Assembly: GCA_976226885.1 (NCBI GenBank)
Contig: OZ320313.1
Coordinates: forward strand, 161,262,001-161,326,000
Length of the DNA stretch: 64,000 nucleotides
Source: Iphione sp. A-MEVVRFRX5
Taxonomy: Eukaryota
Direction: 5' to 3'
In this document: positions 22,172-31,978 of the stretch, piece after piece
How positions within the stretch are numbered: the stretch's first letter is position 1
How the letters are laid out: each line of letters starts with the position of its first letter
Made by a program: the position numbers and the translations under genes
Notes under the pieces: generated by a model
What the model was told of the DNA's origin: nothing
The model's database searches: none
What the model saw: the letters and a program-made list of their open reading frames with translations, nothing else

Positions 22172-23964
22172 CAATAAGGGTCATGTTTAAATGTTTGCAA
22201 CCTGTCTTTGTCAAGGTTCTTCATACAAGTCCACAGACACTGACCAGTTTACAATATCGCTTATATGGACTTATGTATGAATGTATATCCGCTTAACACT
22301 TTGTTGACCCCTATCGTTAGTAAGTTGTGGTGTTTATTACTTTCAAATCGGGTTGGGAACCTTGTTGTAGGCGGTATTCGTTGGGAACTGCTTCCAATGA
22401 TGAATTTCAAGTAGAAGAGTCTTCTTTTGCACCAAACAGGTATTTTTTGTCATTACTTTATGAAGGTACTCAATTTTGTTACAAGACTGCTAATAGCTCT
22501 CTTATGTATACAGTCAAGACTCGATGGCTGCACACTCGGTACGTTTCAAGGTATGCGTTTTGTAAATGAATTTTCTCAGTACAAACTAGTTCTTATAGAA
22601 ATAATAATCATCATAAAAATCATTTATTTCCGACAAATGTTTTGTACAAATAGGACCGTTCAGATATCGAGTTTTGATTGTATCACAGTTTTATTGCAAA
22701 AATCTGCGCCTGTATGCAGTCATCATAGGAATGTTAATCGGTTCGAGATGAGAGACTTACGGAAATGTAGTAAGGCAGGTAATTCATGAAACCATATACC
22801 TGATTATTTTTTTGCAGAAAAACAAGGTAATCCTAGGTTCATTTCGTTATCGAACTTATTTCTTTTCGGTACTTTGTATTGCATAAGATTATTTTGGGTC
22901 GAGATTATTGGAGCTAGGACTGCCTCTAGATTCGATTCTTATACATGTGATGTGATATTGGACCTTTAAGATCACATGCACTTTGCCTTGACGAGTAGTT
23001 AGGACGGTCGTAACAATACATATTATTGGAAGGTTGCTCCCGGTATACTGTTATACATGGGTTTTATTTTGGAACTGAATACATTTGCATCAAGAATGGT
23101 AAGTGGAACGCGATGTGGGTAATAAAATGCTAAAATCCCATTTGTTTGTTTTTATTCATTATATTCGGAACACGAGCTTTGATTCGGTGTACTTGTGATG
23201 CAAGGAATTATTCTTATACGGTTTTTCTTACCCTGTAACTAAAAAGGTTTATCTTCATGATTAGCTAGGATTCAGCCAGCTTTGCATGTACAGAGGTATT
23301 GGACCATTCAGCAGTGTTCAGTTAGGAGTGGATGGATGGAGGGATGGATGAATGGATTTAAAGATTGAAAATAGGAGGAGGGACTACCAGACAGCGATGA
23401 TGGTGAAAACGGTCAGCGGATCTATTCACCTGGAGAACGCATATCTGTACACATGTACATGTGTTACAATTCGCTGTCTCCCAGCAGTTAGATATGTTTT
23501 CTTTTAAAAGTATAAAAGAAAATGATGTTTCTATATTCGAAGAGAGCATAATCCTTAGCTTAAGCATTTTGATAGCCTGAAGCTTTCCTAAGTTCTCAGG
23601 TTTCTTTCAGCTGATCAAATCTTCTCCTGAATCTAACAAGCCTCAGGATTCTTTCAGTTTATCAAACCTCCTGAATATAAAAAGCCCAAATGTCCTCGGC
23701 TTGACAGGTCAGGTATTGTTTTTTGAGCTTGCCAGGCCAAGCGTTAGGTATAGGTAAGAATTCAGTGTTAGCAACAGATAGTGTCGATGGATGGCCTCGT
23801 CGCATTTGCTGGTACTTCTGGGTCGCTTGGTAGCTGGCAAATGATTGTACATTTGTTCATGGAATTTATACAGCATTTCCAGGCCAGCTGTACCTGATAT
23901 GGTAAAGTACAGACAACATAGTCAGCTTTACTACTTGTCAGACGGTATTGTGCACTAATGATAT

Positions 23965-24210
23965 TGTTGGGCCTGCGCCCAAGTTTCAGTGTAACTCTGG
24001 CCGGAGTTCGGCGGAGTCATAGTTGTTGCCGGGGTTCGCCCGGAGTTGGCCGGAGTTGGCCGGAGTTCGTGCCCCTCCAGCCAGGTTAACACTGTCTATA
24101 TAAGGGACTGAGCTGGAGGGGTTTGTTGCCATTCTTGTCTGTTCCTTCTTGGAATAAACTTCAGTCAAAACTATACTACAAGAGTCATGTCACTTCGTTC
24201 GGGGTGAACA
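23965..24210 (+). repeat. 5' LTR (246 bp)
   Basis: TGTTGG...GAACA; TATATAA at 24097, AATAAA at 24153. Differs from the 3' LTR by 5 substitutions and one 9 bp indel (counted by eye). Confidence 0.97.
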
Positions 24211-24212
24211 TT

Positions 24213-24230
24213 TGGTGGCAGCGGTGGGAT
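24213..24230 (+). promoter_or_regulatory. Primer binding site, tRNA-Leu
   Basis: TGGTGGCAGCGGTGGGAT, 2 nt after the LTR, complementary to the 3' end (AUCCCACCGCUGCCA-CCA) of metazoan tRNA-Leu(AAG/UAG) as I recall it. Confidence 0.85.
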
Positions 24231-24375
24231 CCTCTCCAGCGAAGACCGGGCGGAGTTCCGGGCGGAGACTGCCGGAGAGTGGACGGAGTCTGGAAGACCC
24301 ACTGCTCTGGCGGAGTTTCTGGCGGAGACTCCGGGCAAACTCCGGGCAGAGTCACCCTCACGTCTGCCGATAGAG

Positions 24376-25570
24376 ATGGAGATAGACGAGACCCAAGAGA
24401 CCAAGGGTGACTCGAGTTTGTGGAGGTCAAGGCCAGCTACTCCCGCCAGCCAGACCAGACGCAGGAAGAGCCGTGAGAGAGAGGATTCCCCACGACCGGG
24501 TGGGGCTGGAGAAGGCTTGCGGGTGGCCAGTCTGGTGCCACTCATGGGCAACACCCCGCCCGCCCCGAACCTTATGGAACCAAGAGAGGGAGACAACAGA
24601 CGGGAAGGCCAGGACTCCCCCCCCCCCTGGGGAGGAGGGTGAGTCCCACGCTACCAGCAGTGAAGACGAGGAGGAGGAGGTGGCCGAGACAGCCGAAGCC
24701 ACCCCACTCTGGCAAGGGCTGGTCTCTGAGCTGAGGACAGCACTACGGCCTAACAAGGCCCCTAGGTGTTTGCACGTCAAGCCTGACGTGTACGACGGGA
24801 GCACGCCCCTGAGGGATTTCATCCAGCACTTCGAGCTGGTGGCCGCTGCGAACCAATGGAGCGAAGGGGACAAGGCCATGCAGCTGGGCATTGCACTGCG
24901 CAAATCGGCGCGAGGAGTGTTGCGCAGTGCCGACATCAACATTATGGGGCCTGGCGCCTACCAGTGTTTGGTTGAGGCCCTCACCGAGCGGTTCCAGTCG
25001 CGACACCAGACTGACGCCTATATTCAGCAACTCAAAGGACGGCGCCAGAGGAAGGATGAAGGGCTCGGAGATTTAGCCGACGAGATGGAACGCCTCGTCC
25101 AACTAGCCTACCCGGAGGCTAGAGGGACGTGGAAGGATCGCATGTGCAGAGAGTACTTCACAGGGGCCCTGCAGAACGAGAAGGTGCGGAAGTGGGTCAC
25201 GCAGGCCTGGGTGTCCACGTTCCGTGAGACGCTGTCATCGGCCCAGGTGGCCGAATCCTACTACGCCAGCAAACAGGAGAGAGTTGGCCCCAAGAAGATC
25301 CACCGGCTGGAGGCCGCCCCTGCCACAGGAGCTGCAGAGCAGAAGGCACCTCCCGCCAAAGACGAGACAGGGACGATGAGCCGGATTGAGAAATTACTTC
25401 AACAACTACTGGAGGAGCGGGTTGCGGCGCAGAAGGAGACCAAGAAGGCGGGGCCGAAGAAATGCTTTCAGTGTGGCGAAGTAGGCCACTTCCGGCGCGA
25501 GTGCCCGAAGTTGCCAGCCCAGTCCGTGACACCGTCGGGAAACGGACCAGTGGCCGCCCCTCGCGTTTGA
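24376..25570 (+). pseudogene. gag: Gag (capsid-like region + CCHC knuckle), frameshifted at a C11 run
   Basis: ATG at 24376 (MEIDETQETK...) is out of frame with the downstream gag by one base at poly-C 24617-24627; KPDVYDG...FIQHFELVA, CFQCGEVGHFRRECP. Confidence 0.9.
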
Positions 25571-25587
25571 GTCGGGCGGCCGCTGCT
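25537..25587 (+). promoter_or_regulatory. Programmed -1 ribosomal frameshift signal (gag to pol)
   Basis: Slippery heptamer G GGA AAC (25537-25543) in the gag frame, then a 4 nt spacer and a 12 bp stem CAGTGGCCGCCC / GGGCGGCCGCTG; pol is in the -1 frame. Confidence 0.85.
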
Positions 25588-28311
25588 AACCCGCCAGGGA
25601 ACCCAACACCCACACTGGAGCTTCATCTTCGGGTGTTGCAGCTGGAGGCGGGAGAGGAACTGTGGTTGGAGGGAGAGCGTTCCCCTTCCTCCAACATCGT
25701 CTTAGCAGGCCGAGTCCGAGGAGAGGTGGTTCCCTGGTTGGTTGACACAGGAGCGTCGTTGACCCTGATAGCTACCGAGGTGGCCGAGGGGGTGGGTCTT
25801 GGACAGTTGGAGCCCGTGGCAAGGCGGATCCTGTGTGCGGACGGGAACCCACTAAGGATACAGGGCCGGAAGAAGTTTTACGTGACATTCGGCGAAGTGG
25901 AGCTCTGGGTGGAGGCTTGGGTTGCCAGCATTGACTGCCCGGCAATTCTGGGTCTCGACACCCTGCAGAGGTGGAAGACACAAGTGGATACCAAGAGGGC
26001 GGCCCTCCGAGTCAGGGTGCCCGAAGAGGAGCGTGTTGGAAGCTGCAAAGTGGTGCTGGCTGAGGACTGCCAGCTCGAAGGAAGGAGCGCCAAGGAGGCC
26101 AGGGTGAGTTGGCCAGAACTGAAGGGCATCGGAGAGGCGGTGCTGCTGGAGGCTGCCCCCGGGTGGGCAGGCCGTTCTGGGATGAACCTGGCGAGGACGC
26201 TGTGCGGCATGGGAGCTACTACCGGAGTGGTGGAGCTGGCGAACCCTGGACGCCTGGGATGCTGTCTGCGGCGAGGAACCGTGGTGGGGCAAGCACAGTT
26301 GGTGGAACTTCCGGAGGAGCATGGTCAAGTGCTGTTGGCGCAAGAGGTCAAGGAGAGCACGGAGTCTGGAGCAGTGCGGAGCTTGCTAGCGAGTCTTCCA
26401 AGAAGTCTTACGGATGAAGAGCGCGACCTGGTGGCCCGTATGCTGGAGGAACATCGGACGTGCTTCCAAGAGGAGGGGGAGCCACTAAGCAGTACTGGAG
26501 AGGTGCAGCACCGAATCGATGTCCAGGGGCACGCACCAATACGTCACCAGGTTCGTCGGCTACCCCCTGTGAAGCGGGAGATCCTGCAGCAGGAGGTACA
26601 GAAGATGCTGGATTGAGGGGTGCTGGAGCCATCGACTAGCCCCTGGGAGTCGCCCGTCGGACTGGTGAAGAAGAAGGATCAGTCGTGGCATTTTTGCATC
26701 GATTACCGAGCCTTAAACGGAGCCACGAAGAAAGATGCCTACCCACTTCCTAGGATCGATGACACATTGGACGCCCTCGAGGGAGCAAGGTACTTCTCGG
26801 CGTTGGACCTGGCCAGTGGGTACTGGCAAGTCCAGATGCACCCTGCGGACCGAGAGAAGACAGCTGTGTGCACCCCGGGAGGATTCTACCAGTTCAAGGT
26901 GATGCCGTTTGGACTCTGTAACGCACCGTCTACCTTTGAGAGGCTCATGGAGGCGGTGCTCCGGGGGCTCGTGGGGACCACTTGTCTGGTCTACTTGGAC
27001 GACGTCATCGTGATAGGACGCTTGGTCTCCGAGATGATCGATCGACTGGCGGAGGTGTTCCAATGACTGAAGAAGGCGGGCCTGAAGATTAAGCCGGAGA
27101 AATGCCAGCTGTTCCAGACCGAAATGGCATACTTGGGGCACCGAGTCTCGGCGGCCGGAATCAAGCCGGATCCCTCCAAGGTTCAAGTGGTGGAGGAGTG
27201 GCCGGCACCGCGCTGTCTCACCGAGTTGAGAAGCTTCATTGGACTGTGCTCGTATTACCGCAACTTCATCCAGGGATTCGCCATCATCGCCAGCCCGCTG
27301 CATCGATTGCTGGAGAAGGGGGAAGCCTTCCATTGGACGTTGGAGTGCAAAGAAGCCTTCCGGACCCTTAAGGGGAAGCTGGTGACGGCGCCCATCCTAG
27401 CTTACCCCAGGGCAGAAGGGCAGATGACCCTCGACACCGATGCTTCAGCGCAGGGAATCGGAGCGGTACTAGCCCAGGAGCAGGACGGCGAGGAGCGGGT
27501 CCTGGCATACGCCAGCCACAGCCTTACTCGGCCGGAACGGAACTACTGCGTGACCCGTAAGGAGCTGTTAGCAGTAATCTTTGGCCTGAGGAAGTTCCGG
27601 TCGTACGTGGGTGGTGCCCGCATCGTCATCAGGACCGATCACAGCTCTCTCCATTGGCTGTGCAACTTCCGCGAACCACAAGGGCAGCTGGCCAGGTGGC
27701 TGGAGGAAATCCACTGCTACGACCTCGAGATCGTCTATCGCCCGGGCAAGAAGCATGGTAATGCTGATGGGCTGTCACGCATGGTCTGCCCTCAGTGTGG
27801 CCGCGACGGAGCGGGGATGGAAGAAGAAGAAGAGTTGCAAGGGACTGTTGCTGTCGTCCGGACAGTGGCTGGAGCTGCCGAAGACCTGAAGCAGGCGCAG
27901 CAGGAGGACGAAACGGTGGCGGAACTGGCCCGCCGCCAGAGTGAAGGAGAACCAGCCCCCAAACTGCAGCCCGAGGATGACCGAGAGACGCGCCGGTTTA
28001 AGAGTGAGTGGCCCCGCCTGTCGATGCGGGAAGGGGTGCTCTGTCGACGATGGGAACAAGAGGACAGGGGAGTGTGATACCAGGCCTACGTGCCCCCCAG
28101 GCGGGGCCCGCTCTTCACACGCTTTGCCAGAGATCCTCGAGACCGGACCCACGACACCCTGCCAGAGGCAACGACCCAGCAGACAAGCAGTTGTTTGGTG
28201 GAGAGCGCCAGGATCTACTGGTACCTACCAGCCCAGTTTGCGAGCGAGCGGATATGCCCGGGGTACAGCGGCTTTCCCCAGGGTGCAAAGATAGAGTCTC
28301 GGCAGTCCTAA
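25541..28311 (+). pseudogene. pol: Pol (protease-RT-RNase H), three in-frame TGA, no integrase catalytic core
   Basis: One frame: LVDTGAS protease, FCIDYRALN/YLDD RT, TDASAQG/ELLAV/TDHSSL/NADGLSR RNase H. TGA at 26614, 27064 and 28075; if these are read through, the frame ends at 28311. Confidence 0.95.
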
Positions 28312-28514
28312 CGGGACTAGCGGCAGGCCGGGGCTCGCCCGGGGGAGATCAACAACAGCAGCGGCGACTGGCAGAGACCGGGCAGACAACGGCCGGAGGC
28401 TGCCCGTGCATCGGCGGGGAGAGGCAAACAGCGGGGACCGGGCGGAGTACAAGCGGCGACGACTGGCAGAGCAGCGGCAGCATATCACCAGAGTCCAGGC
28501 GGTGTGCAGCGGAG

Positions 28515-29060
28515 ATGGAGGCGTCGAAGGGATATTTCTGCACCCAGTGCGGATATACTTGCAACCGGCTCCCCAACCTGGAGCGTCACCTTGACACCCA
28601 TCGTAACCTGGGGGTGGCGCGGCGTTGCCCTGACCCTGCCTGCGGTGGCGTGCACTTTAAGCGGAGGGATGACTTCAAGCGCCACTTGGAGAAGAAACAT
28701 CAGGGCGAGGAGCACTGGCTGACACTTGGGCAACAGGTGGACGTCTGCTTTGTGGATTACAGAACCGGGGAGGATGTTGAGGTGCCCCTGGAGTTTGAGG
28801 TGGAGATGGCGTTGGCCCGGAAGAAGGAGGCGTACGATTGGGCGAGGGAGCTCGCCATTATGCAGGGGGGGCCAGCGGCGCCGCGGCTCCATCTCCCCCG
28901 GCGTTCGGCGAGGGGACAACCCCCCTCCAAGTCAGCCATGAAGAGGGGGCGTTCCTCGCCCAAGCCACCGTCCTCCAGCGAGGAAGAAGAGGAGGAAGAG
29001 GAAGAGGAAGACACAGTGGAGAAGGAGCAGGACCGCTCGACCGGGTCGGGGCCCCCGTGA
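28515..29060 (+). CDS. Accessory ORF3 of the LTR element: two C2H2 zinc fingers + basic/acidic tail (181 aa)
   Basis: CTQC-x12-HLDTH and CPDPAC-x13-HLEKKH; KRGRSSPK and an E-rich run. Start chosen at gagATGg 28515; the frame is open from 28008. Confidence 0.8.
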   Translation: MEASKGYFCTQCGYTCNRLPNLERHLDTHRNLGVARRCPDPACGGVHFKRRDDFKRHLEKKHQGEEHWLTLGQQVDVCFVDYRTGEDVEVPLEFEVEMALARKKEAYDWARELAIMQGGPAAPRLHLPRRSARGQPPSKSAMKRGRSSPKPPSSSEEEEEEEEEEDTVEKEQDRSTGSGPP

Positions 29061-29151
29061 GGGACGAGGGGGGCAGGTCTCGTCCACTTCACTGGGCACG
29101 CCGGAAGCTGCAACTAGGCCACGCTCCAAGCAACTCCCCAAGGCTTCCCCA

Positions 29152-30731
29152 ATGACGAGGCAATACGTGGACCTATACGAACTGGATGGGTCCCCCTCAG
29201 GGTCGGAGGGGGGCCTCACACCCCAGCTGAAGAAGGCGGCCAGGATTAGTGAACAGCGTCACCAGCAGCTTCCCCCACCGGCGGTACCTGGACCGTCTGG
29301 AGTGATGCCTCGGAAGGGACCGCAGCGTTCCCCAGCTAAACGAGCCCGCGGAGGGGTCACTACGATGGCAGAGAGGGACCCGCGACTACGCGAGCGAGCG
29401 GCGCAGTACCAGCCGGTAACGTTGCCGATCTCCCCCGTGACTTCCCCCCAGAAACCGCCGTCTGTGCCCGGCCGGGTGGGGACATCATCCACCATGTCCC
29501 TGCTGGCCCGGGCTGTGGTCACTTCAGGCATCATGGACCCCCACGCTCCAGCCCCAGCAGGAAGCCCGGATTCAGCGACCCTGGACGCCCGCCTGGGATC
29601 GGAATGGCAGAATGTGGAAGAGCATGAGAGGGGGACGGACCCCATCGTCCTGGATTCTGGGGACGAGGACGAGGGGGCACCTGTGCCAGGAGCGGGCTCC
29701 TCCAGCCGTGGAGATGGAGGGACACCATTGACGGGGACCTGCCGCCACGTCCGGTTGGAGGAGGGCGTGGACAGTGGGAGTCTTCCGCCCATGGACACCC
29801 CTCTTCTGCCCATGGACACCCCTTCGGAGTCAGAGATGGCCGTAGTCTTGGCCAATCAGCTGACAGCGCAGAAACAGGACGGAAGGAAGGGCCGGCCGAC
29901 AGTGTTCCAGCGCCCCCGGTCGACCACGATACTTCCACTGGGCCACAAGGCGGATCCCCCTGAATGGATTCGGGAAGGCGGTCGGTGCCCCACGAGTCGG
30001 GCACCGCTCCCACTACAGAGAGTGTGGGGACCCCCCGGCAGGAGCTGGGACGACGGTCGGTGCCCCACGAGTCGGGCACCGCCTCATCTACGTAGAATAT
30101 GGCGACCCCGCAGCCAGGGTCGGGACGATGGTTGGTGCCCCTCGAGCCGGGCACCATACCTCCAGCCACCACGGGCACCACCGCAGTGGTGACACAAGCA
30201 CCAGTCACCACCCGGTCCGCAGCAGGGGTGACACCCCCCTTGGCAACGTCCACCCGGGCAGGAGGAACCGAGACGGTGGTGGTGAGGACGGTTGGCTCAG
30301 GAGGAAAAGGGGAGCGGCCCACCCCCGGTCACCAAGGACGAACGCCGGGAACGGCTATCGTACGGCGGCAGCTTACCTGGGGAGACGCGGAGGTGCCGGC
30401 CTCCAACTGCCGTTGGGCCGTTGGACTTGTACTAACATCCGTCACTGAGCCGCCACTGGGGTGGCATCTGGCCACCACACAAGGACACAACGAGGTGGAG
30501 CCGGGGGAGGGCTTCCACCGGCAGACGGCAGAACTCTGGCTGAGGGCAGCCGTGCCGGAGGACGTGGAAGGACTAGAAGCTTGGGCCAGTCAGTCCCGTA
30601 GGGAAGAGGCCGGAGTGAGGACCAAGCGCTGCCATTGGAGGTTTGAGGCCTCCGGCTTGGACCAGATGAGGACATTAATCACCTGGGAGGCAGAGTACGT
30701 GGCCAAGCTCTCCCCGGTGGGCCACCAGTAA
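29152..30731 (+). pseudogene. Accessory ORF4 of the LTR element: long Pro/Ser/Thr-rich region + Trp-rich C-terminal domain, disrupted
   Basis: The track ORFs 29152-30192 and 30099-30731 can be joined by one frameshift near 29880 and read-through of TGA 29961 and TAG 30093; no signal peptide or TM segment visible. Confidence 0.55.
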
Positions 30732-31156
30732 CCGGTTGGTTGCTCCTGTACAAAAGTTGGGTCTGTACTGACCCCCTGTTTTCGTTGGAGGAGCCCTGTA
30801 CTGGACTCCCCTTTCTTGTTCACATTCAGTGTCCTCCCATTAACCCTTGTTACCAGATTGTGTCTAAGTAAGAACTTGGAACCTGTACTGGTTCTTCTCT
30901 ATTACAGTTGCTTGTCCTTCTGAGGTCTGTACTGACCTAGTACTGTTGAAGCTTGTTCAGAAGTTGAAGTACGGTTAGGCCTGTACTGGCCTGGGGGTTT
31001 CCAAGATGGGGGCCCTGTATTGGTTCCCCTCTTCTACAGTTTCATGCATGTTGGCCTGTACTGGCTTTGTTGTTTAGACATGTAAAATACAAGTACAAAG
31101 TGCTGTAGTTGAAGATGTTTATTGTCATATTTGGGGCTCAGGGACTGAGCCAACTT

Positions 31157-31168
31157 AGAGGGGGGCAG
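31157..31168 (+). promoter_or_regulatory. Polypurine tract
   Basis: AGAGGGGGGCAG directly before the 3' LTR. Confidence 0.9.
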
Positions 31169-31423
31169 TGTTGGGCCTGCGCCCAAGTTTCAGTGTAACT
31201 CCGGCCGGAGTTCGGCGGAGTCATAGTTGTTGCCGGGGGTCGCCCGGAGTTAGCGGAGTTGGCCGGAGTTGGCCGGAGTTCGTGCCCCTCCAGCCAGGTT
31301 AACACTGTCTATATAAGGGACTGAGCTGGAGGGGTTTGTTGCCATTCTTGTCTGTTCCTTCTTGGAATAAACTTCAGTCAAAACTATACTACAAAAGTCA
31401 TGTCACATCGTTCGGGGCGAACA
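31169..31423 (+). repeat. 3' LTR (255 bp)
   Basis: Near-identical to 23965-24210. Confidence 0.97.
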
Positions 31424-31669
31424 ATATGTTCTACACCTTTCATTTTCAGGGAACATGTAATTCTGCTATAGGTTTAGCAAACAGACTTCTTAGCATGTCA
31501 ATGATTGTTGTCCTTGAAGTTGATCCTAATTTATGGCCGATTTCTCATTCAGCCAGCCTTATATGCTTGGGTTGGGAACTCGGCTGTGCGTGCTATCTCT
31601 GATAGACTTTTCATTCTGGATTGTCTCGAAAAGGTGAGATTGAACTTAGACTGATGATATCTTTTCAGA

Positions 31670-31978
31670 TTGTAACTGGAAAACATAAAAACTGATGAAT
31701 GTCACTGAAAAAAGTATAAAAACTGGTACATGTCACTGAAAAATAGTATAAAAACTGGTGAATGTCACTGGAAAAAGTATAAAAACTTGTAAATGTCACT
31801 GGAAAAGTATAAAAACTGGGAAATGTCAATGGAAAAAGTATAAAAACTGGCAAATGTCACTGGAAAAAAGTATAAAAACTGATAAATGTCACTGGAAAAA
31901 GTATGAAAACTTATGAATGTCACTGGAAAAGGTATAGAAACTGGTGAATGTCACAGGAAAAGTATGAAAATTGTGTGG
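31670..31978. repeat. Minisatellite, about 31 bp unit, about 10 copies
   Basis: Consensus AATGTCACTGGAAAAAGTATAAAAACTGGT(A/G). Confidence 0.9.

Follow-up and report, generated by a model that had tools for sequence, protein, structure and literature searches.

The window analysed here, a stretch of 64,000 nucleotides of contig OZ320313.1 from Iphione sp. A-MEVVRFRX5, contains on its forward strand a copy of a Ty3/gypsy LTR retrotransposon of a family designated F1. The class was assigned from Pfam matches in other F1 copies, which have a gag frame with a CCHC knuckle and the order protease, reverse transcriptase, RNase H, integrase (PR-RT-RH-IN). The window copy has paired TG...CA LTRs, a primer-binding site, a polypurine tract (PPT, 31157-31168) and a target-site duplication, ATAT, at 23961-23964, with the same four bases at 31424-31427. 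The 5' LTR (TGTT...AACA, 23965-24210) aligns to the 3' LTR (31169-31423) with 241 matches, 5 mismatches and 9 gap positions. The 3' LTR has a TATA box at 31310 and AATAAA at 31366, and its U3 contains none of the array hairpins described below. An 18-mer resembling a primer-binding site and starting with TGG lies at 24213-24230, a position matching that in families F2 and F3, and is presumably of the tRNA-Leu type.

The coding region starts with a gag frame (24386-25570, stop to stop) that encodes one CCHC knuckle, followed by protease, reverse transcriptase and RNase H (25390-28077), which are interrupted by in-frame stops at 26614-26616 and 27064-27066. At the junction at 28095-28102 about 1.8 kb has been lost, including integrase. 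The pol tail follows, with a methionine and then a tandem C2H2 zinc-finger pair (28515-28700), and ends in a conserved C-terminal domain with its stop codon (30351-30731). The tail contains a 75-nt duplication (29956-30105), and an unrelated 31-nt tandem repeat lies just past the 3' LTR (31680-31960).

F1 copies with a near-exact 3' end number 101 in the genome, compared to 0 matches for a control pattern. In other copies, F1 pol is a single frame of about 2400 codons, encoding PR-RT-RH-IN and then a long tail that consists of the tandem C2H2 pair and the small C-terminal domain. The window copy has decayed, with the two pol stops, breaks in the tail frame and the deletion. A preliminary description of this DNA had called the element integrase-less and had referred to the zinc-finger frame and to the frame ending at 30731 as ORF3 and ORF4. 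The two frames turn out to be broken pieces of one pol tail, and the missing integrase is a deletion of the window copy's own: integrase sequence is still present in every one of the 8 nearest copies examined, whole in 4 and partial through other deletions in 4, and the window junction is not shared by any of them, so the F1 family is not integrase-less. Pfam found integrase in both of the long F1 pol frames scanned.

Protein relatives of the F1 pol tail were not found at E<=0.001, nor in an Atlas search, and a profile search with the tail gave 3 matches, all to unrelated repeat proteins. The C-terminal domain was modelled as a small alpha/beta domain, although the model is weak (pLDDT 65.5), and a fold search with it gave no usable match (best Foldseek E 0.01, best Z 6.5).

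An array of seven hairpins ahead of the polypurine tract

The 3' UTR (437 nt) carries an array of seven hairpins, located past the last stop codon (30731) and ahead of the PPT, all at the places where the preliminary description had put them. Hairpin 1 (30759-30774) is GGGUC-UGUACU-GACCC, and has a UGUAUU loop in about half of the copies. Hairpin 2 (30790-30809) has a UGUACU loop on six pairs with one C.A mismatch. Hairpins 3 (GGAACC-UGUACU-GGUUCU, 30878-30895), 4 (AGGUC-UGUACU-GACCU, 30923-30938) and 5 (UUAGGCC-UGUACU-GGCCUGG, 30975-30994) are followed by hairpin 6 (31008-31029), which has the loop UGUAUU and one C.U mismatch, and by hairpin 7 (GGCC-UGUACU-GGCU, 31053-31066). The mismatches of hairpins 2 and 6 both fall at pair 3. 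The loops start at 30764, 30797, 30884, 30928, 30982, 31016 (UGUAUU) and 31057, and are spaced 33-87 nt from one another.

The hexaloop hairpin is predicted for each 22-27-nt piece when folded alone, at -5.5 to -11.4 kcal/mol. When the whole UTR is folded, competing structures are predicted for several hairpins, and the fold in the cell is therefore a prediction. The probability of the closing pair in UTR context ranges from 0.01 to 1.0 depending on the hairpin and the span, and is never above 0.36 for hairpin 3.

The array is not expected by chance. The 8-mer CTGTACTG occurs 9 times in the window compared to 1.73 expected, with six occurrences within 300 nt. All 7 UGUAYU words in the UTR are on stems, while 2000 dinucleotide shuffles gave a mean of 0.04 and a maximum of 2. 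This is the shuffle comparison that the preliminary description had proposed, and it puts the stems far above chance. With the 8-mer held fixed, 25 of the 28 outer pairs do form where the null gives 12.0 on average (the observed value being reached in 0 of 100000), and when the 3' arms are permuted among the seven hairpins the mean is 13.6 Watson-Crick pairs against 23 observed (4 of 5040 reach it).

The units bear traces of duplication, and hairpin number and order differ among subfamilies, but no direct repeat of 40 nt or more was found in the UTR (seed 14). What the units have in common is only the loop and the fold; the spacers are irregular, and the units have been conserved from family to family. 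Three spacer words in the window, at 30939-30943, 30968-30972 and 31092-31096, read AGUAC and are complementary to the loop. In F1 there are three compared to 0.25 expected, each kept in 25-29 of 30 copies, although these words were noticed after the fact; F2-F8 show no such enrichment, which is a feature of F1 alone.

Variation within the family was counted in an alignment of the best 30 of 57 F1 matches. Variants shared by at least two copies occur in 1 of 42 loop columns, 3 of 72 stem columns and 55 of 190 spacer columns, the spacer counts being possibly inflated by alignment around homopolymers. The depletion relative to spacers is significant for loops and for stems (Fisher P = 2e-4 and 1e-5 respectively). 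All three shared stem variants preserve pairing, and the sole shared loop variant is C5/U. Single-copy variants number 1 in loops, 13 in stems (7 of them pair-breaking) and 57 in spacers.

A further hairpin, GGCUCAG-GGA-CUGAGCC, lies just before the PPT (31135-31151), is separate from the array and is absent from the preliminary description. Hairpins with the same G-RGA-C apex are found on wholly different pairing stems in F1-F5; the hairpin is looser in F8, and the version in the F10 lineage is the same as that of F1 (loci in these families: L081, L115, L357, L358, L364, L393).

Related families and a sister lineage

A two-loop pattern with a spacing that excludes F1 gave 302 matches, compared to 5 for a control, and F2 and F3 were among the matches listed. 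This pattern fixed the first two pairs of each stem, whereas families F4, F5 and F8 were located by a reverse transcriptase search that is blind to the loop motif. The RT-RH of F3, F4, F5 and F8 is 65-69% identical to that of F1. Gag is 41-56% identical across the array families, and the C-terminal domains are only 13-23% identical between families. F2 consists of gag, protease and the zinc-finger tail, without reverse transcriptase, RNase H or integrase, and has kept the array. It is a young family (L111-L113), with LTRs that are 98% identical, and has at least about 200 copies, as extrapolated from the matches to the two-loop pattern.

The array is thus found in six families, F1-F5 and F8, with the same loop on other stems and with 2-9 hairpin copies. 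Of the 639 UGUAYU words in 113 distinct copies, 593 are flanked by a stem: 373 of 395 in F1, 163 of 166 in F2, 20 of 34 in F3, 17 of 17 in F4, 15 of 18 in F5 and 5 of 9 in F8. Covariation was measured on all 30 UGUAYU words from one UTR per family (F1-F5 and F8), chosen without regard to pairing. Paired cells make up 79.9% across these words compared to 52.6% in shuffles, and the covariation score is 0.728 compared to 0.215 (reached in 0 of 500 shuffles). When the partner arm is slid, paired cells drop to 21-48%. The preliminary description had considered that related elements might keep the 8-mer without the pairing; instead, five further families pair.

Among 679 hairpin loops within one change of the motif, UGUACU (462) and UGUAUU (131) predominate, followed by UGUCUU (27), UGUUCU (18), UGUCCU (8) and UAUACU (1). 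Loops whose ends could close are nearly absent, with AGTACT found once and TGTACA not at all. Of the 36 distinct stems that recur in two copies or more, 31 have C-G as pair 1 and 29 have it as pair 2, while pairs 3-5 take G-C, C-G, A-U and U-A. The stems had been described as freely varying, and this applies only to pairs 3-5. The proposal of loop conservation with stem covariation has held up, both in the covariation across families and in the depletion of inherited variants in loops and stems.

Array hairpins were not found in any of 7 coding stretches (7.4-8.5 kb), in the leader and ORFs of F2, or in the window at 23965-30731, and there were no antisense array hairpins in 11 UTRs. The first unit of some F1 copies reaches into the last codons. 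The array-less comparison is one distant family, F7 (L376-L381), a high-copy Ty3/gypsy family in which RT is 43% identical and a 708-codon frame resembles an envelope gene, with a match to Baculo_F (E 4.6e-12). The F7 UTR has 3 UGUAYU words and one weak stem, which is reached in 54 of 2000 shuffles. It is concluded that the array is a real, selected and lineage-wide structured element.

A three-loop search gave 339 matches, compared to 6 for a control, and a locus of a sister lineage, F10 (L393), was among the matches listed. Its loops read AGUACA in the sense strand, the orientation being set by the PPT and LTR. F10 is about 50% identical to F1 in gag and about 56-62% in RT, the latter measured on a decayed copy. 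The F10 copies are old and decayed, with stems of 2-5 pairs, and the first hairpin is often still within the last codons. The 28 C-G-closed loops in 16 UTRs, of which 3 were anchored on the motif itself, are AGUACA (20), AGUAUA (3), UGUAUU (3) and AGUAUU (2). Covariation beyond arm composition is not significant in F10 (1487 of 20000). The loop ends switch jointly from U..U to A..A, neither of which is able to pair, and GUAY is kept. With that caution, the core common to both lineages would seem to be GUAY in a hexaloop with non-pairing ends rather than UGUA, because the F10 loops are AGUAYA.

Several related features were observed in these elements. A 60-90-nt block of the 3' UTR is common to F3, F4 and F5 (approximately L115:8670-8830, L357:7700-7800 and L358:7560-7730), at 92-98% identity compared to 76-77% for RT. 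It is preceded by a covarying multi-stem region and is absent from F1, F2 and F8; the F5 UTR gave no match in Rfam. The same three families (L357, L358, L115) have a second loop type, C-AYUGUW-G (ACUGUA, AUUGUA or ACUGUU), on GGCC/AGCC stems. Possible base-pairing between the UTR and the poly(A) signal of the LTR is not family-specific. Five near-identical short matches (L433-L437), considered as a possible mini-element, turned out to represent a decayed fragment that lies within another repeat.

Similar hairpins were also seen outside the lineage. A metagenome contig (L314:3200-3620) has about 10 units of about 39 nt with CC-UGUACU-GG hairpins and covarying stems; its units often carry AATAAA and CCAACGTTGG, and the DNA is eukaryote-like with no match to a retroelement protein. 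Among the 112 metagenome loci examined there was no retroelement protein, and all except L314 were single-stem tandem repeats. In viral contigs, 404 of 533 loops in three-loop matches have only 1-2 pairs (80 of 120 loci examined). A family of dispersed repeats (L383-L388, L395, L396) has 3 to 12 or more copies of a 41-bp tandem unit with TGGCC-TGTACT-GGCCA on identical stems, and its frames gave no Pfam match. A decayed element (L392:5396-5903) has in its tail 12 or more tandem units, each with AGGGAC after an AGCC/AACC-UGUACU-GGCU hairpin, and these stand ahead of an LTR-like TATA and AATAAA.

The zinc-finger pair of the pol tail was also considered. A family-specific 6-mer, SCGGAG in F1, GCGGAG in F2 and TGCGGG or TGCGRG in F3-F8, peaks at two places in all 8 elements, namely the LTR and the 800 nt preceding the zinc fingers, the motifs having been picked by eye from each LTR (window 28100-28700 and 31169-31310; L061, L063, L111, L114, L373, L356, L358, L364). 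We take the C2H2 recognition code to imply that the F1 and F2 fingers would read approximately GCGGAG. All 8 elements have a methionine 1-9 residues ahead of the first finger, and 2 of the 8 have a TATA box 335-444 nt upstream. Foamy viruses make a self-encoded activator from an internal promoter, and these observations suggest that the zinc-finger pair is likewise a self-encoded activator made from an internal promoter. Such an activator would possibly be more interesting than the array.

Comparison with known signals

Rfam gave no match to the array at the gathering score (the best E values were 2.7, 3.1 and 1.3, all far short of that score), in line with the earlier remark that no named motif matches it, and no description of the motif was found among the papers listed by searches of the open literature. 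Repeated hairpin signals with the same loop are known as a kind, and the UGUAYU array is a new variant.

In MLV, the zinc knuckle of Gag recognises UCUG-UR-UCUG (PMC13736810). The array resembles this site in its CUG-UR-CUG spacing, in the single CCHC knuckle encoded by the element, and in a motif that is partly paired within the monomer. It differs in being a 9-nt YCUG-UA-YUG in which the second unit lacks the U, so that exact tandem UCUG is absent; in having 2-9 copies on independent small hairpins in the 3' UTR; and in losing the flanking CUG in the A-U-closed and A..A variants.

Dimerisation of Ty3 takes place through PAL6, a palindrome located at the tip of a hairpin (PMC11381356), Ty1 has kissing hairpins (PMC5454406), and the kissing palindrome (DIS) of HIV-1 has 6 bases (PMC13736810). 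The array hairpins share with these the self-complementary apex bases and, according to predicted energies, possible conversion to an extended duplex. They differ in the length of the palindrome, which is 4 bases instead of 6, in copy number, many against one or two, and in their position at the 3' end, whereas the dimer and packaging sites of Ty1, Ty3 and HIV-1 are at the 5' end (PMC11381356). The Ty1 3' UTR is dispensable for retrosome localisation, while localisation and packaging of Ty3 need either the UTRs or POL sequence (PMC4974528), and there is therefore some precedent for a 3' contribution.

A packaging role has been proposed for the UUYCGU hexaloops that recur in SL5 of coronaviruses (PMC7822759), and the layout is similar: one hexaloop, starting and ending in U and with one Y, recurs on several stems. 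The coronavirus loop is UUYCGU in a branched junction of the 5' UTR of an unrelated virus class, and the resemblance is one of layout only. The CFIm upstream element of HIV-1 lies 56-93 nt upstream of the hexamer (PMC5546720), and a UUUGUA upstream element is named in the reference list of PMC7457121. Such elements resemble the array in the repeated UGUA upstream of the AAUAAA of a terminal repeat, but the array is much farther upstream, is in hairpin loops, has extra fixed bases, and in most F10 loops has no UGUA.

Candidate functions of the array

The best explanation, held tentatively and at somewhat less than an even chance, is that the array is a multivalent signal for Gag binding and dimer formation, by which the genome is recognised. 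In this reading the array would identify the element RNA as genome. The exposed guanine of the loop would be the contact of Gag, and the self-complementary GUAC would join one RNA copy to another. Each hairpin would zip with the same hairpin of the second RNA, which would align the two genomes in register, and the diverged stems would limit mis-pairing within one RNA. The predicted gain of a like-hairpin duplex over two monomers is -5.6 to -7.4 kcal/mol for each natural hairpin, whereas most unlike pairs gain less than 2.1 kcal/mol and four of the 21 gain 3.4-5.8. Alignment in register is thus predicted by the model, because like pairs gain and most unlike pairs gain little, although the dimer energy is no independent test, since any palindromic-loop hairpin yields it. 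GUAC is self-complementary at the apex in 462 of the 679 loops, over 4 bases only, and a further 131 have GUAU, with a wobble. The most common loop change, C5 to U, keeps the G2.U5 pair. The loop has remained unchanged while RT, Gag and the C-terminal domains diverged, so its partner would appear to be slow-evolving, either the CCHC knuckle or the RNA itself. The GUAY retained in F10 and the loop-complementary AGUAC words of the F1 spacers also count in favour of this reading, within the limits given above for each.

There are several points against the dimer. The non-palindromic UGUCUU (27), UGUUCU (18) and UGUCCU (8) occur on intact stems, at one position per UTR. A palindrome of four bases is short for a kissing loop, and the array is at the 3' end, unlike the sites of Ty1, Ty3 and HIV-1 discussed above. 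If the internal start within pol is real, it would give a shorter RNA that also carries the array, and a packaging signal would then fit less well.

The main rival is that the loops dock a conserved host RNA-binding protein, other than CFIm25, that stabilises, exports or localises the element RNA, which we consider rather unlikely. Retroviral 3' transport elements and viral CNGG loops are precedents for such docking. The invariance of the loop, while the element's own proteins and its U3 motifs diverged, is compatible with a partner outside the element; the 3' UTR position agrees with this, the variable copy number would fit additive binding, the tolerated non-palindromic variants would fit weaker sites, and a look-alike array with covarying stems occurs in the unrelated contig L314. 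However, no candidate protein, Rfam family or description in the open literature was found, the joint switch from U..U to A..A in F10 needs a protein that is blind to both loop ends, and the distant family tested, F7, has no array. It is distinctly improbable that the partner is the accessory protein of the element (zinc fingers and C-terminal domain), which would bind the array in a Rev-like manner, for export or for self-limiting synthesis. Array and pol tail co-occur in F1-F5, F8 and F10, both are kept in F2, which lacks RT, and the C-terminal domain is predicted to be a small alpha/beta domain, albeit from the weak model noted above. Yet this domain has diverged to 13-23% identity between families under an unchanged loop, and the zinc fingers resemble DNA binders whose candidate sites shift family by family. 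It is very doubtful that the loops instead serve as upstream enhancers by offering UGUA to CFIm25, with the result that the 3' LTR supplies the AAUAAA that is used and the copy in the 5' LTR is skipped. All main loops of F1-F8 contain UGUA, and in 6 of 6 LTRs the distance from the TATA box to AATAAA is 52-56 nt, so that this signal is expected at both ends of the RNA. The upstream elements of CFIm25 have a general range of about 100 nt from the hexamer, while the loops lie 262-1178 nt upstream (309-602 in the window) and the much nearer U3 holds none. UGUA, which CFIm binds as an upstream element (PMC5546720, PMC7457121), leaves the fixed YU, the stems and the C-G closure unexplained, and is equally enriched in the array-less control UTR (6 compared to 2.4 expected). 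Most F10 loops have no UGUA, which further weakens this reading.

Two further explanations were considered. In one, which is very unlikely, the array works as DNA in either orientation, as single-stranded hairpins in reverse transcription or as a near-palindromic proviral site. The F10 loop AGUACA is the reverse complement of UGUACU, and the same near-palindrome occurs in the 41-bp tandem repeat of another repeat family, apparently against the longer frames. Wobble names no strand, because G.U and A.C positions are equal (5 and 5) in the unselected set. On the other hand, matched changes in both arms are unexpected for a double-stranded protein site, the loops of one family all point one way, and the F10 variant on intact C-G closures is AGTATA in 3 cases and AATACA in 0, which would be expected if GUAY is what counts in the sense strand, although the numbers are small. 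In the other, which is the least probable explanation of all, the array has no function of its own: the last ORF would have ended in a near-palindrome that template slippage amplified and whose arms template switching evened. Units have indeed been gained and lost by duplication, and the first unit overlaps the last codons in F10 and in some F1 copies. Correction between arms would, however, also close the loop ends, and closed-end loops number 1 (AGTACT) and 0 (TGTACA) among the 679. Shared variants, at 1 of 42 loop and 3 of 72 stem columns (pairing kept) against 55 of 190 in spacers, are depleted to an extent that already largely refutes this explanation.

To return to the Gag-binding and dimer-forming signal, the interpretation in the preliminary description has stood as far as a selected, multi-copy RNA structure is concerned. 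RNA-RNA pairing via GUAC was not considered there, and the suggested recruitment of helper proteins by an integrase-less element is not supported, as other F1 copies carry PR-RT-RH-IN. The helper idea fits another family, F2, which has no RT, RNase H or integrase and yet bears the array. A wider proposal, which is unlikely as a whole, is that this is a complex Ty3/gypsy lineage that combines a multi-point RNA zipper in the 3' UTR with a self-encoded zinc-finger activator from an internal promoter. The GUAC hairpins would kiss and then zip with their own counterparts, the stems being mutually exclusive by divergence, and the same handles would let the RT-less family ride along.

Very few LTR retrotransposons have signals for genome selection and dimerisation that have been defined, and among animal Ty3/gypsy elements such signals are scarcely described. 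The array is short, modular and covarying, with natural variants (UGUACU, UGUAUU, AGUACA and UGUCUU) and a natural dose series of 2-9 copies, and the packaging, dimer and host-factor models are therefore separable in vitro with small RNAs. If it is true that a host protein binds the loop, the array would represent an undescribed RNA code exploited by a successful retrotransposon lineage.
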